DNA of 64,000 bases from assembly GCA_965216785.1 (NCBI GenBank), contig OZ244197.1, forward strand, positions 64,001 to 128,000, read 5' to 3'. Source of the stretch: Thermodesulfobacteriota bacterium (GTDB lineage Bacteria > Desulfobacterota_D > UBA1144 > Nemesobacterales > UBA2774). This document shows positions 15,784 to 35,064 of this stretch, piece after piece (position 1 is the stretch's first letter; each line of letters starts with the position of its first letter). Made by a program: the position numbers and the translations under genes. Under the pieces are notes generated by a model, which worked only from the letters and a program-made list of their open reading frames with translations, was not told the origin of the DNA and did no database searches.

Positions 15784-18700
15784 TTGAAAGGAGTATGTTC
15801 TTTGGAGTGTTCAGCTTGTAAATCTGCAATCACATCAGGTGAAAAATTCTGCGGCAATTGCGGAAAGAAAGTAGGGGTTGAGTGTCAGAGCTGCGGCAAT
15901 GAAAATCCCCTTAAGAACAAGTTCTGCTCAGAATGCGGCAGCAAACTGAGTAACGGAACTGTATCTAAACCTGAGAGCTTCTCAAAAGATATTCCTGTAC
16001 AGCTTGCCAGAAAGGTGATAGAAGAAAAAGCACATCTTGAAGGCGAGCGTAAACAGATAACGGTCCTATTTGCGGACATATCAAATTTTACAGCATTATC
16101 CGAGAAGCTCGATCCGGAGGACGTAAAGAACCTAGTGGACGGATGCGCCAAGCTTATCATTCAGGATATTTACCACTATGAGGGTACGGTAGACAAATTT
16201 ACAGGCGATGGTGTTATAGCCCTATTCGGCGCTCCAATTTCACTAGAAGATCATGCAGCCCGTGCATTGAGCTCAGCGATTAAAATCCAGGAATCTGTGA
16301 AGGAATACAGCCGTAAAATAAAGAGCGAATTTGGGTATGAATTAGAAATGAGGATCGGGATAAATACAGGGCTCGTTGTGGTGGGGAGTATAGGGAACGA
16401 CCTTAGCATGGATTATACGGCTATGGGCGATACGATTAACCTCACTTCGAGACTCGAATCGTTTGCTGAACCCGGCACAATTCTGGTCAGCGAAAATACT
16501 CAAAGGTTAGTGAGTGACAGATTCAGTTTCGGTCCGGGCGAAGAATACCGAGTAAAAGGAAAAAAATCGGCCGTAACAGCTTACAAGGTATTAGATACGA
16601 AAGAGGATGTAACGCTTCGCGACTTTCAGACTGAAGGTAGACTGACCAGATTCGTCGGGAGAAAAAGAGAGATAAATACCCTCACTGATAGAATCGACCT
16701 GGCAAAGGAAAGCCAGGGGCAGATTATCTCCGTTATAGGGGAGGCTGGACTTGGGAAAACCCGCCTTATCCATGAGCTTAGAGACTTATTAGGAAATGAA
16801 GACCTTAGATGGGTAGAAGGCAAGAGCCTGTCTTATGGCAAGTCGATACCATATTTCCCTATCATTAACCTGCTGAAAAGTTTTTTTAGGATCGAGTCTG
16901 ATTATAGCGAGCGGGTAACTAAAAATAAAATCGAGAAGGAAATCAGAGAGATTGACTCAGATTTATTGTGGACTCTTCCATTCTTATACAGCCTGTTATC
17001 AATCGGCCCCTCCGATAAGAGTATTGAGCAAATGCACGAACGGGAGATAAGGAGGAAGAGCTACGAGGCTGTTAATTCCATCTTCCAGAGACAGAGCAGA
17101 AAGCAGCCGCTACTTTTAGTAGTCGAAAACCTCCACTGGGTGGACAGCGCTTCAGAGGAGCTTATAAATCACATTGTGCACAATATCGCCAGAAGCAGAA
17201 TTATAATACTGGTCTCAACCCGTCCGGGACATTTACATCTGTTTTCCGATAAATCCTACTATACTCAGATAATTCTAAGCCCCCTTTCAGACGCCGATTG
17301 CGAATCTATGATCAAGCAGATCCTGAAAACTCAAGACGTGTCGCGGGACTTACAGGATTTAATTTTGAACAAATGCGAAGGAAACCCATTGTATCTGGAA
17401 GAGGTCGTTAAGGATCTATTAGAGCAGGGCGCTATAAAGGTATCCATGGGAAAAAGCTCTCTCAGTAAAAAGGGCCATGAACTGGCAGTCCCGGGGACGA
17501 TACTTAGTATTATAATGAGCCGGGTGGACAGATTAGATGAGAACCTTAAAAATACGCTCCAGTGCGCCTCCGTGATAGGGAGAGAGTTTTCGTTCCCTCT
17601 ACTGAACGGCATTACAGGCGGCGGCATAGAATTACATGAAGACCTTGAAAAACTGAAAGAACTTGAGCTGATATACGACAAAGGACCCTCACCTGAGCCT
17701 GAATACTTGTTTAAGCACGCGCTCACTCAGGAAGCCACCTACAACAGCCTTCTCTTCGGTAGAAGAAAAGACCTTCACCTATCAATCGGGAAGCTACTCG
17801 AGAACACACATAAAAACAGGCTCGAAGAATATTATGAGACCCTGGCTTACCACTTCTATCACGGTGAAGACGTAGAGAAGTCTTTAGAATATATGACTCT
17901 AGCTGGAGACAAGGCTTTCAGGCTCCACTCTACTAGAGAGGCCATGGAGTTCTACCAAAAAGCTATTGAGCTCATTATTAAGCAGCCTGAAACCGAGGAA
18001 AATAAATCAAAAAGAGCAAACCTTACCATAAAGCTGACAAGGGTGCTCAGATTTTTCGAATCCCCTAAAAATATACTAGAAATGCTCAAAAGCATTGAGG
18101 ATATTGCTGATACACTCGAAGACTATAATCTAAGGTCCAGAATAATGTCTCTGATCGGTTTATTTACTGTGCTATTGGCTAAGAATCAGGAAGCCGGAAT
18201 CCCCTATTGTGAGAAGAGTATCGAGATCGCGAGCACTTTGAAAGATGAAAAAATCACATCACTGGCGTTCTATAGCCTCACAATGGCCTACTATTTTACA
18301 AGAGGAAAAAACGAAGGAGCCGACCTTTTCAAAAAAGCTTACAAAATTTCAAATAATGCCGGAGATTATTTTGAGGCGAGTCATATTCTGCTGCTCCATG
18401 GTATTTCACTTTGGCATTGGGGAGACTATGAGAAAGCCCAACAATACATAAAGAATTCTCGGGACTACGCTGAAAAAAGAAAAGCTCCTACAATGGCTGC
18501 ACACAGTTATTGCGCACATGGGGGTTACGGGGTGTTTTATGGAAACTTCACACAAAACTACGTCGACGACTGTAAAAAAGCGATGCAAATGTTTAAAGAA
18601 TTAGACGACGTGTACTACTATCTTATAGTTTCAGGCTGTTACTGGTACGGAGTTTACAAAACGACAGGGAATAAAGAAGCGGTTAAAAATCTCGAGGAGA

Positions 18701-19155
18701 CAATAAAGAAAAAAGAAGAAAATGATATGTGGATATGGCAGCCGATGCTTTATTCATATTTAGCTGAAGCATACTGTGATTTAGGTATTGAAAGGGAAGC
18801 GCTCGCATCATGTAAAAAATCGATAGAAATAGCAGAGGGAGCCGGGAACAAATTAGAAGCAGGCAGAGGCAGGATCGCCTTAGGAAAATATTATATAGAT
18901 AAACAAAATCGAGACTTGAAAAAGGCGGAAGTGAGTTTTAAAGAAAGTGTTGAAAACTTTGATGTTATTGAAGCAAATTCGGGCCTTTGTATGAGTTATT
19001 TCAATCTCGGTGCACTTTATAAAGAACAGAAAAACTATAAAGAAGCAAAAGCTTATCTTTCTAAAACTATACCGATGGCTAAAAAAGCGGGGTTATGGTG
19101 GTATTTACGGAGCTCAGAACTCCTCTTAAACGATATAAAGGAAAGCACATCATAA
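15784..19155 (+). CDS. Double zinc ribbon - class III adenylyl cyclase - STAND NTPase - TPR protein
   Basis: CxxC x4; VLFADI, DKFTGDG, TAMGDTINLTSRL; FVGR, GEAGLGKT, ENLHWVD, GNPLYL; TPR-like tail (start may be TTG 15802). Confidence 0.9.
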   Translation: MKGVCSLECSACKSAITSGEKFCGNCGKKVGVECQSCGNENPLKNKFCSECGSKLSNGTVSKPESFSKDIPVQLARKVIEEKAHLEGERKQITVLFADISNFTALSEKLDPEDVKNLVDGCAKLIIQDIYHYEGTVDKFTGDGVIALFGAPISLEDHAARALSSAIKIQESVKEYSRKIKSEFGYELEMRIGINTGLVVVGSIGNDLSMDYTAMGDTINLTSRLESFAEPGTILVSENTQRLVSDRFSFGPGEEYRVKGKKSAVTAYKVLDTKEDVTLRDFQTEGRLTRFVGRKREINTLTDRIDLAKESQGQIISVIGEAGLGKTRLIHELRDLLGNEDLRWVEGKSLSYGKSIPYFPIINLLKSFFRIESDYSERVTKNKIEKEIREIDSDLLWTLPFLYSLLSIGPSDKSIEQMHEREIRRKSYEAVNSIFQRQSRKQPLLLVVENLHWVDSASEELINHIVHNIARSRIIILVSTRPGHLHLFSDKSYYTQIILSPLSDADCESMIKQILKTQDVSRDLQDLILNKCEGNPLYLEEVVKDLLEQGAIKVSMGKSSLSKKGHELAVPGTILSIIMSRVDRLDENLKNTLQCASVIGREFSFPLLNGITGGGIELHEDLEKLKELELIYDKGPSPEPEYLFKHALTQEATYNSLLFGRRKDLHLSIGKLLENTHKNRLEEYYETLAYHFYHGEDVEKSLEYMTLAGDKAFRLHSTREAMEFYQKAIELIIKQPETEENKSKRANLTIKLTRVLRFFESPKNILEMLKSIEDIADTLEDYNLRSRIMSLIGLFTVLLAKNQEAGIPYCEKSIEIASTLKDEKITSLAFYSLTMAYYFTRGKNEGADLFKKAYKISNNAGDYFEASHILLLHGISLWHWGDYEKAQQYIKNSRDYAEKRKAPTMAAHSYCAHGGYGVFYGNFTQNYVDDCKKAMQMFKELDDVYYYLIVSGCYWYGVYKTTGNKEAVKNLEETIKKKEENDMWIWQPMLYSYLAEAYCDLGIEREALASCKKSIEIAEGAGNKLEAGRGRIALGKYYIDKQNRDLKKAEVSFKESVENFDVIEANSGLCMSYFNLGALYKEQKNYKEAKAYLSKTIPMAKKAGLWWYLRSSELLLNDIKESTS

Positions 19156-19937: not shown

Positions 19938-20097
19938 CTCTAAAATTCACGAATTAGAATCCCAAATTAGCTTCACTTTTCTTCAACTGTAAACATCCAT
20001 TACAGTTAAAATAACTATTTTCTGTTGTTAAGTTCCTTAAATCTCCCAAATTTTAAGTATATATTCAAATTCCAAGATTCACCCTCCTGGCAATCTC

Positions 20098-20170
20098 TGT
20101 AAGCAGGGTTGACACTTCTGTCAAATTATTCAATGTTTTCAGATGTTTAGAATTTGGCACACTGCTTGCA
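20098..20170 (+). promoter_or_regulatory. sigma54 promoter with enhancer box
   Basis: TGGCACACTGCTTGCA (20155-20170); TGTAAGC-AGG-GTTGACA (20098-20114); a further box at 19988-20004. Confidence 0.8.
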
Positions 20171-20207: not shown

Positions 20208-20549
20208 ATGATAGTAGTTCAGATTATTAACTTTAACTTAAGCGGTATGAGTGAGACGGAGTATGAGCAGACCTGTGATAATTTAGCCGGCTCATTCGCT
20301 GAGGTTCCAGGACTTCTGGCCAAATACTGGCTATCTGACCGGGCCAATAACAGTTACGGCGGGGTGTATTTATGGGAAGACCGTACGTCGCTTGAGCGTT
20401 TTACCCGCTCAGAGCTTTTTAATAGTGTTGCCACTCATCCCAATCTGGTAAACATCTCTTCACAGGTATTCGATGTGCTGGAGGGCCCTACCCGAGTTAC
20501 AAGGGGCTTTGACGCTGTAAGCGCAATTGAAAAAGCCCGTGCGGTTTAA
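20208..20549 (+). CDS. YdhR-family putative monooxygenase
   Basis: VPGLLAKYWL...YGGVYLWED motif; GGAGGT RBS. Confidence 0.8.
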   Translation: MIVVQIINFNLSGMSETEYEQTCDNLAGSFAEVPGLLAKYWLSDRANNSYGGVYLWEDRTSLERFTRSELFNSVATHPNLVNISSQVFDVLEGPTRVTRGFDAVSAIEKARAV

Positions 20550-20576: not shown

Positions 20577-20852
20577 ATGAAATTTATAGCGGTCCATCCA
20601 CTAAATAGTCCTATAAGAGAGGACCAGATTACCGACGCAGCCAGAGCGTGCAGGGCGGAGAACAGTAACAACGCCTGCTGGATAGACAGCTGGACCCAGC
20701 TTAACGACGAAGGAGAGATCACAGTTATCTATTGTCAGTACGACGCAAAGGACGCAGAATCCGTAGCAGATCTTCTTAAAAAGGGAGCACCAGACCTTCC
20801 GGTCGAGGGTATATACCTTATGGGTAAGCTCGAAGCAGAAAATTACAGGTAA
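20577..20852 (+). CDS. DUF4242/SCO4226-like small protein
   Basis: W..SW....G....YCQYDA pattern; paralog of 23707-23988. Confidence 0.6.
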   Translation: MKFIAVHPLNSPIREDQITDAARACRAENSNNACWIDSWTQLNDEGEITVIYCQYDAKDAESVADLLKKGAPDLPVEGIYLMGKLEAENYR

Positions 20853-20861
20853 AAACAGTTC

Positions 20862-20892
20862 GGGCGTTAGGTACGTATTGTATCCAACGCCC
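20862..20892 (+). terminator. Hairpin after the DUF4242 gene
   Basis: GGGCGTTAGGTAC...GTATCCAACGCCC. Confidence 0.5.
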
Positions 20893-20963
20893 TTATACCT
20901 GGGCGAGAAAGTGTCTTGAATTAAGAAAATCTAAAGTGATATAATGTCTTAGGGGAGGTTGAC

Positions 20964-23624
20964 ATGCAGCGTTCCGCGGTAGAAAAAAATAAGATCATCG
21001 GCTCAAGCGCAAAGCTTTCTGAGGTCGTGGACTTAATTTTGAAAATCGCCGATACACCGACCAACATACTTATCACTGGTGAAAGCGGCACAGGAAAGGA
21101 GCTTGCCGCAAGTCTACTGCATGAAAAGAGCAGCCGCTCAGATAAACCTTTTATGGACATCAATTGTGCGGCTATACCCGAGACGCTTCTGGAGAGTGAG
21201 CTCTTCGGTATTGAAAAAGGGGTCGCGACGGGGGTTGAGAGAAGAGAGGGTAAAATCGAGCTATCCGCAGGGGGGAGCCTTTTCCTTGACGAAATAGGCG
21301 ACATGAGCCTCGGCGCTCAGGCAAAGCTGCTCAGGGTCCTTCAGGAAAGGAGCCTTAAAAGAGTAGGCGGCAAAAGCGACATCGCCGTTGACCTGAGGAT
21401 AATCGCAGCCACGAACAAAGACCTTCTTTCGGAGATAAAAAAGGGGAAATTCAGAGAGGATCTTTATTACAGGATCAACGAAGTACATATTAAGATGCCT
21501 TCCCTGAGGGAAATACGTGAGGATATACCCAGTTTGTCCGAGCATTTTCTTCATTCACTCTGTCATGAGCTCAATATGAATACACTCCGGTTTAGTGATT
21601 CAGTCCTGGACCGACTATCGAGCTACAGCTGGCCCGGAAACATCAGAGAGCTTAAAAACGAGGTTAAAAGGGCAGCGCTCCTGGCCGATGGCCATATAAT
21701 AGAAGAAAGAGATTTATCTCCAGATATTTTGAATTTCTTTAAAAACAAGGATGCCAGTCAAGGTCTTGTAAGTGAAGCAACTTCGCTACCTCGAGCAGTA
21801 GAAGAGCTCGAAATCCAGATGATAAAGCAAGCCCTAAAATCATGTCAGGGAAACAGGGTAAAGGCCTCTCAGATGCTTGGAATATCAAGGCAGGGACTAA
21901 TAAAAAAGATAAGCAGATACAGGATAGATCAGGGTAGCTCTCAGAAAAAGAAAATTTCAGACCGATTGCTCAAGTCAAGCAAAAGATCGTTTGTCGGAAG
22001 AGCAAATGAGATTAAAGAAATAAAGGATCTAATCAAGTCCAAGAAGTCTACTTACTATGTCTTATTTATTCACGGCATAGGAGGGATTGGGAAGACAAGT
22101 ATGGTTAAGGAACTTTTAAATTCCTTGGACGCTAAGGTTAGTACAATTTACCTTGATTGTAGAGACATAGAGCCGACGGAGAACGGTTTTCTAACATCGC
22201 TGGGTAATGAACTTAATCTCAAGAGCACCAGAATTACAGTAGAGCGTGTTTTAAAGAGTTTGGAGAAGAGAAAGGAAAGAACACTACTGGTACTCGACAC
22301 CTATGAGACTTTCGGACTTATGGATACCTGGCTCAGAAAGACTTTTATACCATCTCTACCTGAGAATTTTCTTACAATAATCATCGGAAGACACCCGCCA
22401 AATAATTCATGGTTTACAAGCTCAGGCCTTGGGACTCTTATTAAGAGTATTGAGCTTGAGGAGCTTTCTTATGAGGACGCGATCAACTTCTTAATACTCC
22501 GTGGGCTTACGTCAGAAGAAGCAGAAAAGACCTATTCATTCGCCCGGGGGCACCCGATGGCTCTTGAGCTAGCAGCAAATTCGGTATCATCAAAACCCAC
22601 TCGAGACATTTCATACAAATCATTCCCTAACATTATTCATCAGCTGACGCAGGATTTCCTGCTGGGTCTAGATAAGAAGACCAGAAAGACGCTCGAGAGC
22701 CTCTCTTTAGTGAGGCGCTATGACGACACCCTACTGAAACACTTACTAAACGAAGACTACGAAGAAGGTATCTTTGACAATCTCTTAGAGCTCCCATTCG
22801 TCAGCCTAACAGGAGAAGGATGCTTGATACACGATATAGTAAGGGAAACTATAGCTCGTGAGCTATCACTCCGTGATCCGAAGAGGTATAAGGATTCGAA
22901 AAAAGCCGCATGGGTATATCTGAATGAACAATCGCTTGCGAAGCACGGTGAATCACTCTGGCAAGCTACTGCCGATTTGCTATACACTATAGAAAACCCG
23001 GTTGTAAGGGATGCTTTCTTTCCTAAAGGTGCAATGGGTTATGTCGTCGAGCCACTATCTCATGAGGATAAAGAGCATGTAATTGATATTGTGCGTGAGT
23101 CCGAATCGGGTGAACCTGCCGATATAATTGAGAACTGGCTCACATATTATCCGGGCAGTTTCAGTGTTGTTAAAGATATAACCGGTGAAGTTGAGGCGTT
23201 CTTTATTTTATGCGAGCCTAATGAGATCGATAGGAGCCCTTTATCTGAGGATAAAATACTCGACGTTTGGTTTAAGCACTTGGAATCTAATCCTCTAGAT
23301 TCCACAGACAAAGCGCTATTTCTAAGGAGGTGGCTCAGTAGAGGACATGGTGAAGGTCTTTGTCCTGCACAAGGAGCTTCATGGCTCGACGTTAAGAGAA
23401 ACTACATGGAGCTTAGACCTAAATTAAAAAGGCTTTATACAACACTGACTGATTTAGAAAACTATAAGCCTGTCGTATTACCGTTAGGTTTTTCTCTTTT
23501 AGATAGTTCAGAGATTGAGCTCGAAGAAACAACTTACTATTCCGCCATTATTGATTTCGGACCGGACAGCGTCGACGGATGGCTCAGAAAACTTATCGGT
23601 CTTGAGCTTGGTATTGGTCAGTAA
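20964..23624 (+). CDS. sigma54 activator (AAA+ and Fis-HTH) fused to a STAND-type NTPase and C-terminal sensor-like domain
   Basis: GESGTGKE, ESELFGIEKGVATGV, FLDEIG, WPGNIRELKN, HTH LGISRQGL; then FVGR, GIGGIGKT, LLVLDTYE, GHPMALEL. Confidence 0.85.
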   Translation: MQRSAVEKNKIIGSSAKLSEVVDLILKIADTPTNILITGESGTGKELAASLLHEKSSRSDKPFMDINCAAIPETLLESELFGIEKGVATGVERREGKIELSAGGSLFLDEIGDMSLGAQAKLLRVLQERSLKRVGGKSDIAVDLRIIAATNKDLLSEIKKGKFREDLYYRINEVHIKMPSLREIREDIPSLSEHFLHSLCHELNMNTLRFSDSVLDRLSSYSWPGNIRELKNEVKRAALLADGHIIEERDLSPDILNFFKNKDASQGLVSEATSLPRAVEELEIQMIKQALKSCQGNRVKASQMLGISRQGLIKKISRYRIDQGSSQKKKISDRLLKSSKRSFVGRANEIKEIKDLIKSKKSTYYVLFIHGIGGIGKTSMVKELLNSLDAKVSTIYLDCRDIEPTENGFLTSLGNELNLKSTRITVERVLKSLEKRKERTLLVLDTYETFGLMDTWLRKTFIPSLPENFLTIIIGRHPPNNSWFTSSGLGTLIKSIELEELSYEDAINFLILRGLTSEEAEKTYSFARGHPMALELAANSVSSKPTRDISYKSFPNIIHQLTQDFLLGLDKKTRKTLESLSLVRRYDDTLLKHLLNEDYEEGIFDNLLELPFVSLTGEGCLIHDIVRETIARELSLRDPKRYKDSKKAAWVYLNEQSLAKHGESLWQATADLLYTIENPVVRDAFFPKGAMGYVVEPLSHEDKEHVIDIVRESESGEPADIIENWLTYYPGSFSVVKDITGEVEAFFILCEPNEIDRSPLSEDKILDVWFKHLESNPLDSTDKALFLRRWLSRGHGEGLCPAQGASWLDVKRNYMELRPKLKRLYTTLTDLENYKPVVLPLGFSLLDSSEIELEETTYYSAIIDFGPDSVDGWLRKLIGLELGIGQ

Positions 23625-23706: not shown

Positions 23707-23988
23707 CTACCTGTAATCTTCACCATATACCTCGGCTATCTGAAAGATACCATCAGATGGCGGCAGCTCTGGTACGGATGATGAGAGGGTCGCGTGAATG
23801 GAATTAACATCTTTACTGTCCCACTCACAAAAAACTCTCGACACTTTTCCGTCATCAGTCAACTGAAGCCAGCTCCTGACCCAGTAAGCATCAGTGCTGA
23901 GGTTGGCCTTGCACTTTTGTGCAATCGGCACAACGTCCTCGCCGTTTACTGGTGGGTTAACCGGGTGAATAGCTATATATCTAGGCAT
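23707..23988 (-). CDS. DUF4242/SCO4226-like small protein
   Basis: Alignable to 20577-20852 (IAxHP, WxxSW, FCEWD, E.YR). Confidence 0.6.
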   Translation of the reverse strand: MPRYIAIHPVNPPVNGEDVVPIAQKCKANLSTDAYWVRSWLQLTDDGKVSRVFCEWDSKDVNSIHATLSSSVPELPPSDGIFQIAEVYGEDYR

Positions 23989-24030: not shown

Positions 24031-25134
24031 TCAATACCGAGACATAATATTCTCATGAAAACTATTCATAGCTTTTATAGGATCAGGCACAGGGGCTATC
24101 ATTATCTGATTTATACCCTGTGACTCCATCCTTTTAATCGTGTCGATGATCTCGCTGCTGGTTCCAACGAGAACTGATGCTTCTATCATCTCCGGCGTGA
24201 GCACATCGTTAAATTCCTCGTTCCAGAAAAAATAGTTACTGTAGTAGGCAAGGTGTCTTCTTTCGGGGTTGTCCAGGTCTGAAGGATACGCGTTTGTGAA
24301 TTTCATGACCCCGTCCCTTAAGCTCTCAGGAAGCGGCTCGCCCGGAGTTGTACCTGTGTTTTTCCCGTGGTTTTCAAGTGACTTCGCGAGTATATTCAGA
24401 CATACAGAGACCATAGGTCCCAGCTGATGTCTGACTGATTCAGTTTCAAGAGATTCGCCTTCATCCAGAATATAAAAAGCGCTAAGAACCATGGTATATA
24501 TGTCCTCAGGGTTTCTTCCTGATTTCTTCGCGCCCTTTCTGATTCGCTCCATACAATAATCTATGTACTCCTCGTCTATCGCCCCAAGAAGCATTACACC
24601 GTCCGCAAGCTCTCCGGCAAGCTCAAGAGTCTTTGGTCCGCTTCCGGCCATAAATATTGGTATTTCGTCTTTGGTATTTATAAAGCCCATATCTGGACTC
24701 AGGAATTTAACAGGTCTCTTCCTCTCCTGAGATAAATACTTATCCGGGCCTTCACTGTATTCCGCCTCTTCACCCTTGAGCATTTTTCTATATATGCCAA
24801 CGTCATTCCGAAGCTCATCAAGCTTAGCTATCGGCATACCCCAGGCCCGTCTCGCGGTGTTACCGGTACCGATCCCGAGAACACACCTGCCGGGCGCAAG
24901 CTCGTTTAGAGTAGCCATGGCTCTTGCGGTAACTGGAGTCATCCTGGCGCGCGGGCATGTGACGCCAGGGCCAAGCTTTATTTTTTTTGTATTGGTGGCG
25001 CAAAGGGTTAACGTTTCAAAAACATCGCTCCCTATGCTGTCATACGGCATAAAATGTGTGAACCCCTTATCTTCGCCATGGGCCACCCATTGCCATGAAT
25101 GTATATGTGAGGGAAAATGCAATCCAAAGTCCAT
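24031..25134 (-). CDS. LLM-class flavin/F420-dependent oxidoreductase
   Basis: TKKIKLGPGVT, APGRCVLGIGTG and AGSGPKTLELAGELADG motifs. Confidence 0.88.
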   Translation of the reverse strand: MDFGLHFPSHIHSWQWVAHGEDKGFTHFMPYDSIGSDVFETLTLCATNTKKIKLGPGVTCPRARMTPVTARAMATLNELAPGRCVLGIGTGNTARRAWGMPIAKLDELRNDVGIYRKMLKGEEAEYSEGPDKYLSQERKRPVKFLSPDMGFINTKDEIPIFMAGSGPKTLELAGELADGVMLLGAIDEEYIDYCMERIRKGAKKSGRNPEDIYTMVLSAFYILDEGESLETESVRHQLGPMVSVCLNILAKSLENHGKNTGTTPGEPLPESLRDGVMKFTNAYPSDLDNPERRHLAYYSNYFFWNEEFNDVLTPEMIEASVLVGTSSEIIDTIKRMESQGINQIMIAPVPDPIKAMNSFHENIMSRY

Positions 25135-25180: not shown

Positions 25181-25286
25181 TGCAAGGTGTGTGCCAAATC
25201 TATAACTAGCTGATATCGTTAGATTATATTCTCTAACTTGTCGGAAATACGTAAACTAAATTTACGTATTGTTAACTAGATTTACT
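25181..25286 (-). promoter_or_regulatory. sigma54 promoter with tandem enhancer
   Basis: TGGCACACACCTTGCA on the minus strand (25181-25196); boxes at 25250-25266 and 25270-25286. Confidence 0.85.
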
Positions 25287-25326: not shown

Positions 25327-26859
25327 TCAAATGTTGTATCTCTTCATTTTTTTGAAGAGCCCTTGCCTAGTTATATCAAGGAGCTCAGATGCTTTTTGTT
25401 TATTACCCCCGGTTCTAGCAAGGGCGTCTTTAATCATCTTGACCTCTATTTTCTCGACAACGCTCTTAATAGTTTGAGACGCGTCAAATTCCTCTAATGA
25501 TGGTGTACCGTCTTCTCCACTATCTTCTAATATATAGTGAGAAAGGTCTTCTTCTTGAATCACATCTCCTGAAGACATTATAATCGCTCTTTTCATTTCA
25601 TTTTCTAGCTCTCTTACATTACCAGGCCATGTGTATCCTTGAAGTCGCACAAGAGCGTCATTTGACAGACTTAGGGGCTCTCGAGAATATTCTTTAGAGT
25701 ACTTTTGTAAAAAATATTTGGCTAAAGTTTCAATATCTTCTTTAATGTCACTGAGAGAAGGCATTTCAATATGTACTACGTTTAAGCGGTAGAAAAGGTC
25801 CTCACGGAATGAATCTTTTTTGATCGCCTTTTTGAGATCCTTGTTTGTCGCCGCTACAACTCTGATGTCTACGTTAATCTCTTTCTTGCCGCCTAGCCTT
25901 ATAACTTTCCTTTCCTGAAGAGCTCTCAGGAGCTTAGCCTGTGCCGCCAGGCACATATCCCCTATCTCATCGAGGAACAAGGTACCGCCGTTTGCCATCT
26001 CAATCTTTCCTTCCCGTCTATCAACTCCGGTGGCGACACCTTTTTCAATTCCGAAAAGCTCGCTCTCGAGAATTGTGTCAGGTAAAGAGGCACAGTTTAT
26101 ATCAATAAAAGCCTTGTCTGAGCGGAGACTGTTATAGTGAATCATTCTGGCTGCGAGCTCCTTGCCAGTCCCGCTTTCTCCAGTTATCAGAACATCCAAA
26201 GGGCTCGATGCTATTTTTTCAATCAGTCTGACCACTTCAGCAATCTTTGGACTTGTACCCACTAATTCATTTATAAAAAACTTCCCTTCACTCCTTTCTC
26301 TCAGGATTTTGTTTTCGCGCTCCAGGCTTTTCTTTGATCCCTCAAGGTTACGTATGTGCTTTGCGTTTTCGATTGCGACAGCTGCGTTCGAAGCAAAAAT
26401 TTCGAGTATGTCCCTATCATTTGAGGTGAACTTGCCCCCGGTTTTGTTTATGGCTTGGAGAACACCTACCGACCGACCCTGAAAGTTTTTAATCGGAACA
26501 CAGAGTAACGATTTGGTTCGGTATCCCGTGCTTTTATCAATAGCAGGATTGAATTTCTTATTTTTGTAAGCGTTGTCTACAATTACAGATTTTCCTGAAA
26601 CAAATACCTCCCCTGCTATGCCATCATTGGAATCGAAGCGAACTGTCTCATTTGTACCGAGCGCAATCTTAGACCAAAGCTCATCTGTGAAGTCATCGAA
26701 TAGAAAAAGCGTCCCCCTGTCTGCTCCTACGATTTGTGCTGACTCCTGCACAATGAAGTCAAGAAGCAGATCGAGGTCTTTCTCCGCCCTCATCATACTC
26801 CTAAGGTTATAAAGGCTTTGATATTCTGTTTCCTTATTTATCATTTCATTTTTAGACAT
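25327..26859 (-). CDS. GAF - sigma54 AAA+ - Fis-HTH enhancer-binding protein
   Basis: GAF with DKSTGYRTKSLLCVP and INK...F...D; GESGTGKE; GVATGV loop; HTH LDITRQGL. Confidence 0.92.
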   Translation of the reverse strand: MSKNEMINKETEYQSLYNLRSMMRAEKDLDLLLDFIVQESAQIVGADRGTLFLFDDFTDELWSKIALGTNETVRFDSNDGIAGEVFVSGKSVIVDNAYKNKKFNPAIDKSTGYRTKSLLCVPIKNFQGRSVGVLQAINKTGGKFTSNDRDILEIFASNAAVAIENAKHIRNLEGSKKSLERENKILRERSEGKFFINELVGTSPKIAEVVRLIEKIASSPLDVLITGESGTGKELAARMIHYNSLRSDKAFIDINCASLPDTILESELFGIEKGVATGVDRREGKIEMANGGTLFLDEIGDMCLAAQAKLLRALQERKVIRLGGKKEINVDIRVVAATNKDLKKAIKKDSFREDLFYRLNVVHIEMPSLSDIKEDIETLAKYFLQKYSKEYSREPLSLSNDALVRLQGYTWPGNVRELENEMKRAIIMSSGDVIQEEDLSHYILEDSGEDGTPSLEEFDASQTIKSVVEKIEVKMIKDALARTGGNKQKASELLDITRQGLFKKMKRYNI

Positions 26860-28058: not shown

Positions 28059-28994
28059 ATGAAGCCTTCTATGAAACCTTCTTTTAATCAATTATGCGAG
28101 TGGGAAGAATTAAATAAACAGGGCTTGCTTCCTGAAAACATTAAAATGACGTTTGAGCAGGCACAATATCAAGTGCAACAAGTTATTAATGCTTCAGGTT
28201 TAAGAGAAGCGCTCTCCAAGACAAAATCTCAAATTCAAGAAGTAATAGATACTTCAGGATTGAAAGAAGTGCTCTACGGGGTAAATGCTCAAATGCAAGA
28301 ACTCTATGAAAACATCAAACCATCATTAATACTCCTCGGTGAATTTTACGAACGAAAAAAAGATCATGATGAGAACTATCAAAAAAAATATCCATTAGGT
28401 TATTACTGCTTTAGTAATAAAAGTAGTGATGTATCTTATCGAATACTGAAAGATAAGGTTCGAATGAGAGTAAAAGAATATGGGATATATTTTGATAATA
28501 GAAGGAATTTTAATAGATCCTCTAAAGGTGAATTAGCTGAAACCTTGTTTGAGAATGAATATCTAAAAATTTTTCAAGAAACAAAAGAACTCTATTCACT
28601 ATCTGCAGTCGAGTTTGAGAATGCGGATTTCGGTCTAGATTGTATTAAAAGAATTGATAAGCTTCCTGAAAGAGTACGAAGCAATTTTCGTTATAAACTG
28701 GATAGTTTGAATAAACAACAGTCATTTGAAGAAAATTTAGAGAGAAGATTAGAACTCGAAGCTGAATTGCTTATGTCTGATTCATTAGAACTATCTGAAA
28801 TTATAGAGATTGTAGAAGCAATAGAAAATCTGCCAGATAAACAACAAGAAGCAATAAAGATGTTTTACATTCAGGGGTACACACAAGCAGAAGCGTCACG
28901 ACAATTAGAAATATCAGAACCTAGCTTCAAAGAAAGATTAGATAATGCACACAAAACCCTAAGAAAGAAATTTCAAAATATTTTCGTACAATAA
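28059..28994 (+). CDS. Protein with C-terminal sigma70 region-4-like HTH
   Basis: AIENLPDKQQEAIKMFYIQGYTQAEASRQLEISE..F..RL. Confidence 0.7.
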   Translation: MKPSMKPSFNQLCEWEELNKQGLLPENIKMTFEQAQYQVQQVINASGLREALSKTKSQIQEVIDTSGLKEVLYGVNAQMQELYENIKPSLILLGEFYERKKDHDENYQKKYPLGYYCFSNKSSDVSYRILKDKVRMRVKEYGIYFDNRRNFNRSSKGELAETLFENEYLKIFQETKELYSLSAVEFENADFGLDCIKRIDKLPERVRSNFRYKLDSLNKQQSFEENLERRLELEAELLMSDSLELSEIIEIVEAIENLPDKQQEAIKMFYIQGYTQAEASRQLEISEPSFKERLDNAHKTLRKKFQNIFVQ

Positions 28995-29062
28995 AAATTC
29001 TACCCTAAGAATCGCCCATTTAGGTTACCTATATATATTAGAAGCAGTAATTGGAGGTAATC

Positions 29063-29251
29063 ATGATAAATGGCCGCATAGCAATAACTCTCTCTCAGAA
29101 AGGCATAGATACCGTTTCATTTGTTTCAAGTAATAAAGCGGAAGCTCTGAATCTATTTCTGATCATAAAGGAAGAGCTCGAAAATTTTGAAGATAACATC
29201 AAAAAATTGATTGAAAGTCATGAGGTGAAAGAAAATGACTTTAACCAATAG
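29063..29251 (+). CDS. Small hypothetical protein
   Basis: GGAGGT RBS; coupled to the downstream xis. Confidence 0.55.
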   Translation: MINGRIAITLSQKGIDTVSFVSSNKAEALNLFLIIKEELENFEDNIKKLIESHEVKENDFNQ

Positions 29252-29441
29252 AGGTAAGCTTCTTACTCCCAAAAAGGCTAAAGAAACTTATGGTATCGAG
29301 ACTACGAAAATTTATAACTGGATACGTAATCGCCGGTTTACATTCATCAAATTGGATAAGGAGATCTTATTTTGGGAGAAGGACCTATTGGATTTTTTGG
29401 AACAAAATACTAGCTATTCATGTATTGATATTGGTGAGTAA
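29235..29441 (+). CDS. Excisionase-like HTH protein
   Basis: LLTPKKAKETYGI...IYNWI...FIKL..EILF....L..FL pattern of MerR/HTH_17 Xis. Confidence 0.75.
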   Translation: MTLTNRGKLLTPKKAKETYGIETTKIYNWIRNRRFTFIKLDKEILFWEKDLLDFLEQNTSYSCIDIGE

Positions 29442-30234
29442 TTTGAGAGCAGATAAAGAATCAAATTTGGACGATCGCATATTAACATCAGAGTATGGTT
29501 ATTTCCAAATACCAAATTCTATTTTTAATCTCAAATTACCACCTAATGAATTACTAGTGCTCTTTAATCTTATTAGGCGAGCAGATAAAACCGGAGAGTG
29601 TTACCCAAGTATCCCAAGAATAGGAAGAGATACAGGAATAAAATCAGAAAATACAGTTAGAAAAGCACTAAGGGGAATAATGAATAAGAAACTCGTTAGG
29701 AGAACCGGCAGAACATATCGTAATGTGCATATAATGAAGATAACCCCCAGCATCTATCAAAGCATTATAAGATCGAGTGAAAAGAATAGAATTACGAAAA
29801 ATGTAAAGCGTGATAGTTATATTAACCCTTCAATAATTGAAGTGGTGACCCCTTCAAATAATGATCTACAACCCCATGAATATTTGAGTACTAAGGAAGA
29901 AAAGAATGAATACCCATTTTTTAAGGAAAACAAAAAGGGATACAGCACGAATTCTCTCAAAAAAAATTCATTTAGGAGGAAATGCAATAAGAACGACAAT
30001 GATCCATCAATAATAACAAAGTTAGATTTAGAGATTCCAGTAAATCAGGCAAAAAGAATATTAGGGGAATTCGGGATAAAAGAAAATAACCAGCAAGGGA
30101 ATCCATTATATTATTCCAATTTGGATCCTAAGCAGACAAAAGATGCTATAGATGAGCTTGAAAGGATAAAAACAATAAATATGCGAGAACATCCGAAAGT
30201 ATATGAAAATAATTTGGATCCCTTCGATATATGA
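29434..30234 (+). CDS. HTH_36-type replication initiator
   Basis: YFQIPNSIF...CYPSIPRIGRDTGI.SENTVRKAL; probable GTG start overlapping the xis stop. Confidence 0.7.
   Translation: MSNLRADKESNLDDRILTSEYGYFQIPNSIFNLKLPPNELLVLFNLIRRADKTGECYPSIPRIGRDTGIKSENTVRKALRGIMNKKLVRRTGRTYRNVHIMKITPSIYQSIIRSSEKNRITKNVKRDSYINPSIIEVVTPSNNDLQPHEYLSTKEEKNEYPFFKENKKGYSTNSLKKNSFRRKCNKNDNDPSIITKLDLEIPVNQAKRILGEFGIKENNQQGNPLYYSNLDPKQTKDAIDELERIKTINMREHPKVYENNLDPFDI
29824..29890 (+). repeat. Three iteron-like repeats within the rep gene
   Basis: CCC-TTCA-N5-TGA-like units at ~29824, 29848 and 29871 (23-24 bp period). Confidence 0.45.
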
Positions 30235-30245
30235 TAAATGGTCTA

Positions 30246-30300
30246 AGGGAGGGGGGTGTAATTTGTTACAACCTAAATCATGGAGACCGACGGGGCAGTC
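30246..30300 (+). other. cos-like packaging signal
   Basis: GGGAGGGGGG...AGACCGACGGGG just upstream of the P27-type terS, as in HK97-like phage ends. Confidence 0.4.
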
Positions 30301-30367
30301 AATTTCTTGTATAGTCAGCAAAAAAACTTTCGAGCGTAAAAAAATCTCGTGATGGAGGTATTAACAA

Positions 30368-30817
30368 TTGCCAAGAGGTGGACATAATAAAAAACCTGAA
30401 TCTTTGAAAATTATTCAGGGAACATTTAGAAAAGACAGAGCAAATCCAAATTCTCCAAAACTAAAGTCTATAGCTCCTAGTCCATCATATAGCCTTCCCA
30501 AACAGGCAAAAAATGAATATTTAAAACTCAGCAAGTTATTGCTCGACATGGGAGTACTCTCAGAACCAGATCAGGGTGAACTTGAGAACCTTTCGATAAT
30601 CAGAGCTCAGATAAAGTATCTTTCAAAGAGACTTTTCAACGTGACCGATATGAATGAATTCCGAAAAGTACAGATAGCAATTAATGATGCAATAAAGATA
30701 AGCAATGCATTGTCTATAAGATTTGGATTAAGTCCTGCAGATCGAAGTAGAGTGAATTTATCGCAGGAGAAGAAACATAACAAGTGGGAAGAATTTGAAA
30801 GGAGAAATAGCATATGA
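30368..30817 (+). CDS. terS: P27-family terminase small subunit
   Basis: MPRGG..KP..LKIIQGT.R.DR N-terminus; FGLSPADRSRV C-terminus. Confidence 0.8.
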   Translation: MPRGGHNKKPESLKIIQGTFRKDRANPNSPKLKSIAPSPSYSLPKQAKNEYLKLSKLLLDMGVLSEPDQGELENLSIIRAQIKYLSKRLFNVTDMNEFRKVQIAINDAIKISNALSIRFGLSPADRSRVNLSQEKKHNKWEEFERRNSI

Positions 30818-31218
30818 AAAAAACAAAAATACCAGACATAAAAATTATAAGTGGTGAATTTAACAATAACATTCCTGAGATGCCGAAAGATCTTTCACAT
30901 GAAGCTAAATATTGGTGGAAAAGACTTATTAAAAGTATTGATTCTAAAGTCTTAATGCCATGTGATGATCTAGCCTTAATTCTACTAGTTGATTCGTTGG
31001 CTGCTTATCATAAAACTAAAATGAATATTCGAAAATTCGGTGATTCATATGAAACTGTAGATGATGAGGGACACAAAAAGAGATATATGAGGCCAGAAGT
31101 AGAAATTTTATCTATATTCTATCGATCTGTTATTTTCGGGCTTCGAGAATTTCTAATCAGCCCGTATTCTAGAGAAGATTTTAGTGATTTTATAGATGAT
31201 AGTACTGATAATATATGA
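30814..31218 (+). CDS. terS: Second, diverged P27-family terminase small subunit
   Basis: P.DLS.EAK.WW.RL, D..AL, RPEV and EFLISPYSR motifs. Confidence 0.65.
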   Translation: MKKTKIPDIKIISGEFNNNIPEMPKDLSHEAKYWWKRLIKSIDSKVLMPCDDLALILLVDSLAAYHKTKMNIRKFGDSYETVDDEGHKKRYMRPEVEILSIFYRSVIFGLREFLISPYSREDFSDFIDDSTDNI

Positions 31219-31437
31219 AATACCACTTGAACAAATTAGATTTAATTTGTGTGTAAGAATTTGATTTAACTAGTTCAGGAATGTTCATTAGATTATACTG
31301 AGTTTTTGTTAAAATTGATTTTGTATCTTGATTGTAATTAAGGATACTTCATAAGTGTTATAATATATGAATGAAAAATACAATCCGACCAATCAATATA
31401 GAGAGTCAAAGATTATGACGTAATTTGGGTATTTGAT

Positions 31438-32115
31438 ATGATTGCAATATTGAAAAGAGCTTATTTTTCACCTTACCACTTATTTTCTGCTAACAATTTC
31501 CTAGATCGTGCATCATCAATTGAGTTTAAACATACCGGGAAAGATAGATTTGATTTCAATCATAACTCTTATGTAATTAGTTCCATTATATCATCTGTCG
31601 CATTTTTAGAAGCGGCTATTAATGAACTATTCCAAGATGTATATGATGATCATGAAAGTTACACAAGCCTCATCGATAATGATGTCAAAAAAACTATGAA
31701 AAAAGTGTGGCAGATGTTAGAAAGAAGACCCGTATTAGAAAAATACCAACTAGCACTAGAACTATCAAATGTAAAAGCTTTTTCAAAAGGTCGCAATCCT
31801 TATAGTAGTACAAATTTAGCAATTCTATTGCGCAACGAGTTAGTACATTACAAACCCAAAACTTTCGGAGCAGGTAAAGTACATAGCTTTGCTAATAAGC
31901 TCAAAGGGAAATTTGAATTAAACCCACTTATGTCAAACCCATCAAACCAATTTTTCCCTGATCAGTGCTTGAGCAAAGGATGTGCAGAATGGGTATTAAT
32001 ATCTTGCCTCTCTCTGACCGAAGAATTTTTTTCTAGGATGCAAGTAACTCCGACTTATCAAAGACTGGATGAAATCGATATTCAGACTCTTAAGGAAAAA
32101 CTACTAATTGGGTAA
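31438..32115 (+). CDS. HEPN-like protein
   Basis: SVAFLEAAINE and LRNELVH (R-x4-H). Confidence 0.6.
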   Translation: MIAILKRAYFSPYHLFSANNFLDRASSIEFKHTGKDRFDFNHNSYVISSIISSVAFLEAAINELFQDVYDDHESYTSLIDNDVKKTMKKVWQMLERRPVLEKYQLALELSNVKAFSKGRNPYSSTNLAILLRNELVHYKPKTFGAGKVHSFANKLKGKFELNPLMSNPSNQFFPDQCLSKGCAEWVLISCLSLTEEFFSRMQVTPTYQRLDEIDIQTLKEKLLIG

Positions 32116-32182
32116 AAATTATATGCGAAAAAATAATGCTAATTCTATAAAACTTCATGAGTCAATTAAATAGAGGGGAAAT

Positions 32183-33370
32183 ATGTCTGTATTCAAGAAA
32201 AATAACCGTTGGTATATAGATTATTACCTTCCTGATGGAAAAAGAAAAAGAGAAGTAGTAACTATCGATGGAGTAGACCCATCTAAAATATCCCGAGAAG
32301 ATGCAAAAAAAGCATTAACAATCCGCAAGGCTGAGTTAGCAGAAGGCAAGTTTAAAATTGCTCAGACTAGAAAACCAATACCCTTCAAAAAACTGGCAAT
32401 GAGGTACTTGGATTATTCAAAAACTAATAAGAGAGCTTGGGTAAGAGATGAGCAGTCTCTTAATCATCTCGAGGCTTTCTTTGAAAATAAAAAACTTCAC
32501 CAGATCACACCTTGGCTAATAGAAAAATATAAATCAGAAAGGAAAAGAATAGTAAAGCCGGCAACTGTGAACAGAGAACTGGATACTCTAAGACATATGC
32601 TGAATATAGCGGTCGTTTGGAAGATGATAGATGAGACCCCTTACAAAGGTATCAAACATTTTAGAGTAAATAATTCAAATCTAAGAATCTTGAGCGAATC
32701 GGAATTTAATAACCTCTATGAATCTGGTTCTTTAGAATTAAAACCAATCATTCTAACTGCATACCTGACAGGTATGAGACTAGGAGAAATTCTGAAACTA
32801 AGATGGGAAGATATAGATTTTAAGGATGATTATATCGTAGTCAGAGATAGTAAGAATTATGAAAGTAGAGCGATTTCCATCCACCATACCCTAAAGAAAG
32901 CTTTGTCACAACTTAAAAGCAATACTCAATCTGAATATGTTTTTGAGGGAAGAAAAACTGTTAAAAGAGCTTGGCAAAAAGCGTTGAAGCAATCAGGTAT
33001 TACACATTGCAGATTTCACGACTTAAGACATACATTTGCCAGCAACCTAGTTATGAAGGGAGTCGACATTGTAACTGTCGCTGAGCTTTTGGGGCATAAA
33101 GATTTATCAATGACAAAACGTTATTCTCATCCTAGTCCGGAACATAAGAAGAAGGCTATTAATAGGCTAAATCTCGATAGTATGGACACCTATTTAGACA
33201 CCAAAACGTCTCAGAGGAATGAACAAAAGAGGGAAGAAGCGGGACAAGATACTGTAATTAATAGAGAAAAAGTGGTCGGGGTGGCCGGACTTGAACCGGC
33301 GGCCTCTGCGTCCCGAACGCTATTCAAGACTTTTGTGTTAGTCTGTGTGCAAACGTGTGAAGTTGCATAA
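32183..33370 (+). CDS. int: Tyrosine integrase of element A (reads through the att site)
   Basis: GMRLGE, HDLRH, LGH and RYSH catalytic residues. Confidence 0.95.
   Translation: MSVFKKNNRWYIDYYLPDGKRKREVVTIDGVDPSKISREDAKKALTIRKAELAEGKFKIAQTRKPIPFKKLAMRYLDYSKTNKRAWVRDEQSLNHLEAFFENKKLHQITPWLIEKYKSERKRIVKPATVNRELDTLRHMLNIAVVWKMIDETPYKGIKHFRVNNSNLRILSESEFNNLYESGSLELKPIILTAYLTGMRLGEILKLRWEDIDFKDDYIVVRDSKNYESRAISIHHTLKKALSQLKSNTQSEYVFEGRKTVKRAWQKALKQSGITHCRFHDLRHTFASNLVMKGVDIVTVAELLGHKDLSMTKRYSHPSPEHKKKAINRLNLDSMDTYLDTKTSQRNEQKREEAGQDTVINREKVVGVAGLEPAASASRTLFKTFVLVCVQTCEVA
33273..33320 (-). repeat. 3' half of tRNA-Pro (A/B junction att site)
   Basis: 48 bp identical to 13160-13207 and 45803-45850. 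Confidence 0.95.
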
Positions 33371-33643
33371 TTGCCTTTATTTATTGAGTAATTCCATAGA
33401 CTAGAGTATATACCTTTTGTGCGTAGTTGAACTTGATTGTGTGAAAGGGGAACTGGGTTACTGACATTTTCACTGACATGTGGGGGGGGGCAGTACACAC
33501 CCTACCCCAGGCGAGCCAAGCTCTACCCGAACGCATATGGGTGGTAAGACTCTCGCCTCGGAACAAATAATCTATGGGTTGTCTATAACAAACTTTAATT
33601 ATAGTCACATATATAAAATCCTATTTTTCTGAGGCAGGTCAAG

Positions 33644-34462
33644 TTACTTGCAGTACTGTTTTACAGCATCAGTAGCTTGTGGGAATCCCAATTTGCTTGC
33701 TTCGGCAATATCTAAACACCCAGACTTACGTTGACCGAGAGTCATTTTCACAACTCCCCTGTTATATAGTGCTGCAACATTTTTTGGATTAAGTTCTAGA
33801 GCTTTATCAAAATCATCTATTGCTCCTCGATTGTCTTGTAGCATACTCTTAGTTGTTCCTCGGTTGTAAAATGATTGTTCATCTTTTGGATTCAATTCTA
33901 TCGCTTTGCTGTAGTCATCCAGCGAACCTCTTATATCACCTAAGGAAGACTTGGCATTACCCCTATTTAGATAAAAATTAGAATTACTTGGATTTAATTC
34001 AATTGCTTTATTGTAATCTTTTATTGAACTATGCTTATCTTCCAAATAAGAATAAATAACTCCCCTGCTATTAAAAGCTTCGGCATCATCAGGGTTCACT
34101 TCTATCGCCTTGTTACAGTCTTCAATCGCTCCAAGATAATTGCCTAGCGCTGCTTTCGCTAAACCCCTTTGAGAGTAGGCTTCACTATAATTTGGATTTA
34201 ATTCTATCGCTTGCGTGTAATCCTTTATTGAATCCCTGTAATTTTCCAATGCAAGCTTAGTAGCTCCTCTAAGATAGTAAGCCTTTGTGTAATCTTGCTT
34301 AAGCTCTATTGCTTTATTGAAATCCTTTAATGCTCCATAATCATCTCCATTTTCGAATTTAATAAATCCTCTATCAAAATACTCTTCGGCTGTCTGGGCA
34401 AAGACTAATCCAGTTAGAAATATTAACAATATAAATACGATTAAGAATTTCATTATTATCAC
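33644..34462 (-). CDS. Secreted TPR protein
   Basis: Signal peptide, AQTAEEYF, 34-aa KAIELNP repeats, GCLD...YC cap. Confidence 0.9.
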   Translation of the reverse strand: MIIMKFLIVFILLIFLTGLVFAQTAEEYFDRGFIKFENGDDYGALKDFNKAIELKQDYTKAYYLRGATKLALENYRDSIKDYTQAIELNPNYSEAYSQRGLAKAALGNYLGAIEDCNKAIEVNPDDAEAFNSRGVIYSYLEDKHSSIKDYNKAIELNPSNSNFYLNRGNAKSSLGDIRGSLDDYSKAIELNPKDEQSFYNRGTTKSMLQDNRGAIDDFDKALELNPKNVAALYNRGVVKMTLGQRKSGCLDIAEASKLGFPQATDAVKQYCK

Positions 34463-34468
34463 ATCATG

Positions 34469-34876
34469 TTATTCCCAATCTCGTGGATTGAGAGATGACA
34501 AGCCTTCATAAATATCATTATGATGTAAAAAATACCAAGCTTCTTCTTTTGTTTGCATATTTTTTAACCACGATTCAATTTGAACATAAACTAGCCCTCT
34601 AACCATAGCCTTATCCATTATTTCTTTTAATGAGTCATAATCTTTTCTAGTAAAGTATTGATAATAATGATTCTTCATAATTACTCTAATAGAATTGCAA
34701 GTCGAAGTTTTCATGAATTGATGAATGTCTGTAATGTCTAGGTTTGGAAATTTATCTTCCAATAGGCTGGTTTGTATATGAATTAAAAAAACTTCATACG
34801 GACGCCCTACAGTATAGTGCTTATACATTAGGAACAAGAATATTAAAACTATAATAATTCCAATACTAGCTAGCAA
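34469..34876 (-). CDS. Membrane-anchored hypothetical protein
   Basis: N-terminal TM helix; AAGGAG RBS. Confidence 0.6.
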   Translation of the reverse strand: MLASIGIIIVLIFLFLMYKHYTVGRPYEVFLIHIQTSLLEDKFPNLDITDIHQFMKTSTCNSIRVIMKNHYYQYFTRKDYDSLKEIMDKAMVRGLVYVQIESWLKNMQTKEEAWYFLHHNDIYEGLSSLNPRDWE

Positions 34877-35064
34877 GAAGTTACATCTCCTTAAATGTCT
34901 GCTAAAGTCTGTTTCTATTTAGAATTAGATTAAAGCCAGAGCTATACAATTACAAGGTGGTTTTCGCTAATTGAGAAATTCCAAAAGGATAAGATATTAA
35001 GGTGAGCTCCGTAGTAGAATCATTTGATACTTAATAACCTAAAATACGGTAGGCCTAAAAGATG

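Follow-up and report, generated by a model that had tools for sequence, protein, structure and literature searches.

The 64,000-nucleotide stretch of Thermodesulfobacteriota DNA analysed here (the window) carries a real gene fusion, conserved in a small bacterial lineage, in which a sigma54-type AAA+ and Fis-HTH activator unit (bEBP) is followed in frame by a STAND ATPase and a GNAT-fold domain. We propose, with a probability of roughly 0.6, that this protein is a one-component activator of a ydhR–SCO4226-like promoter in which the resting NOD restrains the AAA+ domain and oligomerization aids activation, and that it originated by read-through.

A conserved activator–STAND fusion

The fusion is encoded by an 886-aa open reading frame free of internal stops, with the following parts.

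20916–20945, + strand: sigma70-type promoter-like site of the fusion gene, TTGAAT-18-TATAAT with an extended −10 TG
20964–23624, + strand: fusion gene, 886 aa; sigma54 AAA+, lid, Fis-HTH, linker, STAND NOD, arm and GNAT-fold domain
20994–21737, + strand: bEBP AAA+ domain and lid (aa 11–258); Walker A GESGTGKE, Walker B DE, R164/R170 and R228 kept
21219–21236, + strand: loop 1, GVATGV (aa 86–91), in place of GAFTGA
21798–21920, + strand: Fis-type HTH (aa 279–319); recognition helix SRQGLIKK, common to GAF-type GVATGV activators
21921–21989, + strand: linker, including an ISDRL helix that also begins stand-alone modules
21990–23030, + strand: STAND NOD and arm (aa 343–689); FVGR, Walker A G371–T378, Walker B D445-T-Y-E448, sensor-1 R476, GxP 529–531, HD 623–624
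23031–23573, + strand: GNAT-fold C-terminal domain (about aa 690–870), the predicted sensor; R793-x-x-G796-x-G798 after strand beta4

Pfam matches were Sigma54_activat (aa 11–176, E 4.8e-67), AAA_lid_14 (182–258), HTH_8 (279–319) and AAA_16 (343–403); no NCBIfam family scored above cut-off, and ESM Atlas scores for the full-length protein, at most 0.82, are leads only. This layout agrees with a sequence-only reading that had placed the AAA+ and Fis-HTH domains in aa ~1–320, followed in frame by a second P-loop, whose motifs lie where that reading located them (GIGGIGKT, 371–378; LLVLD, 441–445; GHP, 529–531). It had also seen no N-terminal regulatory domain. The 5′ end of the frame is indeed complete, because the last position of the upstream gene is 20852 and the promoter-like site (TTGAAT-18-TG.TATAAT) is kept before the ATG, which rules out a lost N-terminal sensor. 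Since a scan for sigma70-type sites found 2 versus 2.5 expected by chance, support for this site comes from its conservation in 3/3 related loci aligned.

An assembly artefact or a singleton had been named as outcomes that would undo the fusion, and both were discarded. The junction is intact within one 20,119-bp contig and shows 0 differences in sequencing runs X1 and X3, which come from a single study and are possibly the source DNA itself; in runs X5 and X7 no piece bridges it, and a 159-bp X5 piece ends at 21948. Sixteen other clusters at 90% identity share this in-frame order, the strongest evidence that the fusion is real, and the linker from HTH to FVGR measures 21–25 aa in all 17 fusion proteins (the query and one for each of these clusters). 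Fourteen aligned fusions are 47–82% identical to the query, and every one keeps the ATPase motifs of both the bEBP and the NOD. The fusion is under purifying selection: synonymous sites are near saturation and, where dS is not saturated, dN/dS is 0.03–0.18 in the folded domains, with higher values for the linker (0.25–0.54) and, in a single close pair, for the HTH (0.55). An assembly chimera or a recent non-functional read-through would fit the absence of the fusion from the 119 other genomes of the class, two of the same genus included, but it is ruled out by the independent homologues, which come from several sources; with synonymous sites saturated and the junction inside one contig, we give it next to no chance. 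What had been described as a domain swap thus stands, as a sigma54 AAA+-HTH conserved ahead of a STAND-plus-sensor unit in fusions that share one clade.

An activator half with a GVATGV loop

The front half combines a PF00158 AAA+ domain and lid, in which we take GESGTGKE, DE, R164/R170 and R228 to be the Walker A and B motifs, arginine fingers and sensor II, with a Fis-type HTH (HTH_8) that is internal rather than terminal. The host genome carries rpoN, and a −24/−12 promoter with upstream palindromes is linked to the gene. What is missing is a GAFTGA loop with Phe or Tyr at position 3; GVATGV occupies this place in all fusion proteins and in 69/69 clade members examined. On these features we file the fusion as a protein that probably works like a bEBP, within a GVATGV clade, rather than as a canonical bEBP; with this loop, activation of transcription by the fusion is a prediction. 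As far as the available parts of the sources go, only Tyr is tolerated for the loop Phe, other replacements being inactive (Francke 2011, PMC3162934), Tyr alone is tolerated at this position in PspF (PMC2941729), and the Desulfovibrio GVATGV protein DVUA0100 is predicted to activate sigma54 promoters (PMC4641369).

Fifteen bEBP-like ORFs are present in the host genome, and three have GVATGV: the fusion, a GAF-containing paralogue at 25327–26859 of the window and one elsewhere. Across the class, the motif occurs in 18/120 genomes at 31 sites. The 28 sites outside the host genome comprise 20 GAF-activators and 8 without GAF, the latter being three in-frame cyclase–STAND fusions, one frameshifted version, two with another tail, one cut by a contig end and one fragment.

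A STAND switch ending in a GNAT fold

A structural model of aa 330–886 (pLDDT 87) has the NBD-HD-WHD fold of STAND proteins. The best match of the NOD and arm was MalT (8bob; Z 24.9, rmsd 4.4, 342 aligned), followed by PH0952 (6mfv, Z 21.7), NRC2 (21.5) and Apaf-1 (21.0). Residues that we take to be the Walker A, sensor-1 Arg, GxP and WHD His-Asp motifs are present and conserved among relatives (K377 in 115/115, R476 in 114/115, G529 and P531 in 114/115, H623 in 101/115 and D624 in 109/115). The Walker B stretch D445-T-Y-E448 is equally constant (D in 113/115, E in 115/115) and has no adjacent second acid, so ATP hydrolysis is uncertain.

Pfam found neither the TPR nor the GerE match of MalT/LAL proteins, and a TPR or helical sensor at the C-terminus is ruled out by the fold of this region. 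Folded alone, the last ~190 aa (pLDDT 95) adopt a GNAT fold, matching FeeM (2g0b; Z 13.9, rmsd 3.3, 173 aligned) and RimI (Z 13.2), and all top matches were acyltransferases or GNAT-like domains. Sequence searches were less telling: Pfam gave no GNAT match in the fusion protein, ESM Atlas placed the C-terminal piece in unnamed clusters, one with Acetyltransf_1 at 12%, and a PDB sequence search with the module alignment, dominated by the wHTH domains of relatives, returned no GNAT match among the 60 listed. The R-x-x-G-x-G pattern after beta4 is present and yet partly conserved across the family (R/K 67/120, G 116/120, G/A 66/120), with an acid inside the loop (E/D in 112/120), so this domain may bind acyl-CoA. 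When the STAND-GNAT module was modelled together with the ydhR protein, the predicted complex scored 0.04, which weighs neither for nor against contact.

A widespread module and a rare fusion

A search with aa 330–886 yielded 835 matches among 7,983 candidates scored. The best 120 of these 835 divide into 84 module–cyclase, 17 activator–module (query included), 7 module–LuxR, 5 module–cyclase–DUF1326 and 5 kinase–module proteins, with one module–wHTH and one module alone. At E values up to 1e-30 the module forms 555 clusters at 50% identity. Among the best 150 representatives at that identity, a C-terminal wHTH was the output in 97 and LuxR in 12; cyclase, kinase and BTAD outputs also occurred, 31 had no output detectable by the probes used, and the bEBP fusion accounted for just one. 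Because one NOD-GNAT unit is paired with outputs as different as wHTH, LuxR, cyclase, kinase, BTAD and bEBP, the 557-aa module behaves, judging by these architectures, as a reusable mobile input unit.

Only the host, among 120 genomes of its class, has the fusion; four others carry the module, of the cyclase type or broken, and the named close relatives are labelled Dadabacteria, Thermodesulfobacteriota or Desulfobacterota. Of 72 GTDB module loci, 21 had ydhR and 6 had DUF1326 no more than 2 kb from the module; a SCO4226-like profile matched 0/72, a count from a divergent seed that is no proof of absence. Methyltransferases, tautomerases and peroxiredoxins recurred among the module's neighbours (143 of 220 listed neighbour ORFs scanned). 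The literature searched, chiefly non-subscription journals without their supplements, held no account of the STAND-GNAT module or of the bEBP fusion; the module is unnamed and apparently undescribed, although supplementary architecture tables could list it.

A predicted target promoter

The neighbourhood of the fusion contains the following features.

15784–19155, + strand: zinc ribbon–cyclase–STAND–TPR gene (Pfam); candidate cyclic-nucleotide source for the GAF paralogue
19988–20004, unstranded: distal palindromic enhancer-like site, TGTAA-N7-TTACA, conserved in related loci
20098–20114, unstranded: proximal enhancer-like site with one mismatch, 110 bp from the distal site
20154–20170, + strand: sigma54 −24/−12 site TTGGCACACTGCTTGCA before ydhR; predicted target promoter
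20208–20549, + strand: ydhR-family gene (PF08803, Pfam); first predicted target
20577–20852, + strand: SCO4226-like small gene (PF14026, Pfam); second predicted target
23707–23988, − strand: another SCO4226-like gene, with 36% identity to the first and without a Pfam match at 1e-5
24031–25134, − strand: luciferase-like monooxygenase gene (Pfam)
25181–25197, − strand: sigma54 site before the luciferase-like monooxygenase gene, with paired enhancer-like sites at 25250 and 25270
25327–26859, − strand: paralogous GAF–AAA+–HTH activator with the same GVATGV loop; best match of its GAF, the CyaB2 adenylate-cyclase GAF

The −24/−12 promoter and its distal palindrome are conserved in 4/4 fusion loci with ydhR upstream (L084–L087; L087 carries a frameshift and is closely related to L086). 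A second palindrome lies ~110 bp nearer the promoter, in the window 56 bp upstream of the −24 element. This conserved arrangement of a promoter and two TGTAA-N7-TTACA sites makes the promoter a predicted target of the fusion, which likely activates the adjacent ydhR–SCO4226-like operon directly. No bEBP besides the fusion was detected in the 16.8 kb of L086. Elsewhere the arrangement varies: L089 has a promoter and ydhR downstream and only an N8-spaced palindrome, none lying within one mismatch of N7; L090 has no such −24/−12 promoter upstream of the fusion; and the L088 locus comes without upstream DNA.

With one mismatch allowed, the palindrome lay upstream of 5/7 sigma54 sites near GVATGV genes in the host genome, against a background of 3/44 distant sigma54 sites and 3.8% of random positions. 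Over all GVATGV loci the figure was 13/26, and 7/18 when restricted to 23 regions that were retrieved once the motif had been fixed. The GAF paralogue lies 1.7 kb from the fusion and has a nearly identical recognition helix, so it too could serve the sites at the window's ydhR promoter as an activator.

Origin of the fusion

Both halves descend from families that are still found as separate genes, according to trees built by quick or FastTree methods, in which composition bias was flagged. In an 80-row quick tree, 15 fusion AAA+-HTH domains form one clade (98) within the GVATGV GAF-activators, and in a 28-row subset AU tests rejected both monophyly of the GAF-activators (p 0.0006) and the grouping of all GAF-less forms into a single clade (p 0.002), ruling out one origin for all GAF-less activator-first fusions. 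In a 68-row tree, 11 fusion modules form one clade (100) within the cyclase-type modules, whose monophyly was rejected in a 26-row subset (AU, p 0.003). The sister of the fusion AAA+ (support 86, weak) is a GAF subgroup other than that of the L007/L080 activator beside the module–cyclase.

A GAF-activator gene lies directly upstream of a module gene in L007, L080, the near-identical metagenome loci L091–L094, L106 and L108, and this module gene is a module–cyclase wherever intact (it is broken in L080). The GAF of the window's paralogue matched CyaB2 best (1ykd, E 1.6e-35), then an HD-type phosphohydrolase GAF and PDE GAFs. We infer that read-through between adjacent GAF-activator and STAND-GNAT-cyclase genes, with loss of GAF and cyclase, would have generated the fusion; with both lost, direct coupling probably replaced a two-gene cyclic-nucleotide relay, collapsing it into one protein. 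GAF was lost more than once in the GVATGV clade, with unrelated tails that include a zinc ribbon and a predicted membrane segment.

A proposed mechanism and its alternatives

At rest, an ADP-closed NOD would block assembly of a productive AAA+ ring on the TGTAA-N7-TTACA sites, the GAF-less AAA+ domain itself probably being active by default. A cytoplasmic small molecule binding the GNAT domain would open the NOD and allow ADP/ATP exchange and oligomerization; acyl-CoA is the leading, though tentative, candidate for this ligand. Oligomerization would then release and cluster the N-terminal AAA+ domains, which would remodel sigma54-RNA polymerase. MalT, as summarized in the available part of PMC10427625, follows the same sequence of sensor ligand, nucleotide exchange and oligomerization, and NorR without its GAF is reported to be constitutive (accessible portion of PMC2941729); this NorR behaviour, with the recurrence of GAF loss beside unrelated tails, favours repression by the resting NOD. 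The sequence-only reading had STAND oligomerization drive bEBP ring assembly; by our analysis, relief of repression would fit equally well. A fuller version of our proposal is rather doubtful as a whole. It would have a two-gene relay, with a STAND-GNAT-cyclase making a cyclic nucleotide for a GAF sigma54 activator, collapsed into one protein whose NLR-like, acyl-CoA-sensing STAND oligomer gates the sigma54 ring from the C-terminus; the activator would serve a TGTAA-N7-TTACA regulon of its own despite lacking the loop Phe, and the module would be a plug-in sensor, widespread and unnamed.

The Phe-less loop is also the starting point for the foremost alternative, in itself unlikely: that the fusion binds the same enhancer but cannot remodel sigma54, and under STAND control would repress the promoter or compete there. 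The inactivity of published Phe substitutions other than Tyr (PMC2941729 and PMC3162934, both in part), an RQGL recognition helix common to the fusion and its paralogues, and a proximal site so close to the −24 element would all suit a repressor. Yet a loop unchanged in every clade member examined, with all catalytic residues kept, tells against this alternative, as do the −24/−12 sites bearing the palindrome to which the clade's genes are linked and the lack of a second activator in the 16.8 kb of L086.

Two further readings accept an active front half and differ from ours in the role of the tail. In one, the front half is PspF-like, either active without a signal or regulated in trans, and the GNAT domain is no gating sensor but a working acyltransferase or a separate output; the R-x-x-G-x-G pattern and the uniformly acyltransferase or GNAT-like fold matches would be expected of an enzyme, but the pairing of NOD-GNAT with so many kinds of output looks input-like and the conserved acid sits within the loop, so we hold this to be improbable and place it behind the repressor. 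Less probable again is a pure scaffold, in which the GAF-less AAA+ is inactive alone, the ring strictly needs the STAND oligomer and there is no resting repression. Canonical STANDs do switch on N-terminal effectors through oligomerization (per the available part of PMC10427625), and the linker is short, with little variation in length; against this, the GAF of NorR represses and its loss gives constitutive activity (PMC2941729, in part), and repeated GAF loss with unrelated tails suggests that the AAA+ core is independent of a STAND ring. We therefore retain a resting NOD that restrains an otherwise competent AAA+ domain.

Comparison with known systems

If this reading is right, the fusion would be a sigma54 activator controlled from its C-terminal side by an NLR-like switch, an arrangement that the five published bEBP groups do not cover, and its relatives a natural clade that lacks the supposedly essential GAFTGA phenylalanine and has a predicted promoter and enhancer. 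The unnamed STAND-GNAT sensor is reused with at least six outputs. What relatives apparently need two genes and a cyclic-nucleotide messenger for, the fusion likely does directly, and since the parental genes are adjacent in relatives, the step from relay to fusion is directly comparable. The surprise is limited in that all parts are known folds and other families also have activator-first STAND fusions.

The published bEBP groups include sensor-less and LevR-type forms with C-terminal input, and none like the fusion appears in the available parts of PMC7175178 and PMC3162934. PspF and HrpR–HrpS (group 4, type Ic in these sources) share with it an N-terminal AAA+ followed by a Fis-HTH without an N-terminal regulatory domain, but have nothing beyond the HTH and rely on trans-acting proteins for control, whereas the fusion adds ~560 aa of STAND-GNAT and has a GVATGV loop. 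LevR-type (type II) bEBPs resemble it in carrying regulatory domains C-terminal to the AAA+ (PMC3162934, in part); unlike it, they have an N-terminal HTH, take their input from PTS phosphorylation of PRD/EII domains and possess no STAND switch. GAF-type bEBPs (NorR, NifA and FhlA) represent the clade from which the AAA+-HTH descends, and the fusion differs in lacking GAF and in its predicted control from the C-terminus. DVUA0100 of Desulfovibrio vulgaris has the GVATGV loop and is a predicted activator of co-localized sigma54 promoters; its long N-terminal region and different regulon set it apart, by description alone (PMC4641369, in part).

On the STAND side, MalT of E. coli and PH0952 are the closest structural counterparts of the NOD and arm, and MalT is likewise a NOD-switched transcription regulator; its sensor, however, is TPR-like and its LuxR effector C-terminal, where the fusion has a GNAT fold at the sensor position and an N-terminal sigma54 AAA+ effector. 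The sequence-only reading had assumed that STAND regulators usually end in an HTH. This holds for the present module, most of whose representatives have a C-terminal wHTH, but not for STANDs generally: the available part of PMC10427625 gives effector–NOD–sensor as the canonical order and MalT as unusual in its C-terminal effector, so the order of the fusion is inverted for a bEBP and canonical for a STAND.

The nearest parallels are uncharacterized activator-first cyclase–STAND–TPR proteins, which also place AAA+-HTH ahead of a STAND but differ in their cyclase domain and TPR sensor, their length (1,290–1,590 aa) and their separate origins. Eleven belong to the GVATGV clade (domain order checked for 10), with 3 more besides, and the layout also occurs in proteins with a GAFTDA loop (7 of 10 checked). 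The earlier worry that the architecture might already be common is thus answered in two parts: the STAND-GNAT fusion is rare, and an activator placed first and joined to a STAND is not unique to it.

Further sigma54 sites suggest a local regulon

Five more −24/−12-like sites fall in a 17-kb part of the window, and three tandem pairs of the enhancer-like palindrome accompany them:

10825 (+), −24/−12-like site
14706 (−), −24/−12-like site
14849 (+), −24/−12-like site
25197 (−), −24/−12-like site
26990 (+), −24/−12-like site
14759/14779, tandem palindrome pair, common to two sites
25250/25270, tandem palindrome pair
26901/26921, tandem palindrome pair

Spacing within the pairs is 20 bp, as against 110 bp at the ydhR promoter. 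The presence of tandem palindromes at four of the five sites suggests a local regulon of the GVATGV activators, comprising a methyltransferase, a collagen-repeat protein, an LLM protein and a 191-aa ORF. Elsewhere in the same genome (L083:6874-13160, about 2,998,900-3,005,200), the third GVATGV GAF-activator is convergent with a cyclase-STAND-TPR gene; a palindrome and a divergent sigma54 site accompany it, as does an SCO4226-like gene.

A GC-rich inverted repeat (window 20862-20892) separates the SCO4226-like gene from the fusion promoter. It is retained, with changed stems, in three related fusion loci (L084-L086), and terminator prediction did not flag it.

A low-GC region (window 28059-46000), which also contains a sigma70-region-4 protein and a DnaB-like ORF, probably represents integrated elements:

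32183, tyrosine recombinase
44699, tyrosine recombinase
45803-45880, tRNA-Pro

Module neighbourhoods and other activator layouts

Scanning of neighbour ORFs around the STAND-GNAT module in GTDB loci (L037-L063; 143 of 220 listed ORFs covered) revealed nine flanking class I methyltransferases, mostly Rv2258c-like, and three tautomerases. At one locus (L081:10520-11242 (−), G011), a module-cyclase gene is preceded, with a gap of 11 bp, by a sigma54 site, a small ORF that we take from its sequence to be DUF4242-like and a GVATGV fragment of 111 aa that lacks the GAF; this arrangement may be a remnant of the fusion or an assembly error. At another (L007:8291-9559 (−)), an SBP56 gene (selenium-binding/methanethiol-oxidase family) adjoins the module-cyclase gene, and the locus has palindrome-bearing sigma54 sites.

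Two proteins (P0270 and P0272) carry two sigma54 AAA+ domains in a single chain. Four others (P0277, P0282, P0284 and P0286) are activator-first and also contain a zinc ribbon, a hydrophobic stretch and one more domain, a layout that resembles the membrane-anchored ToxR/CadC-like one with a sigma54 output.
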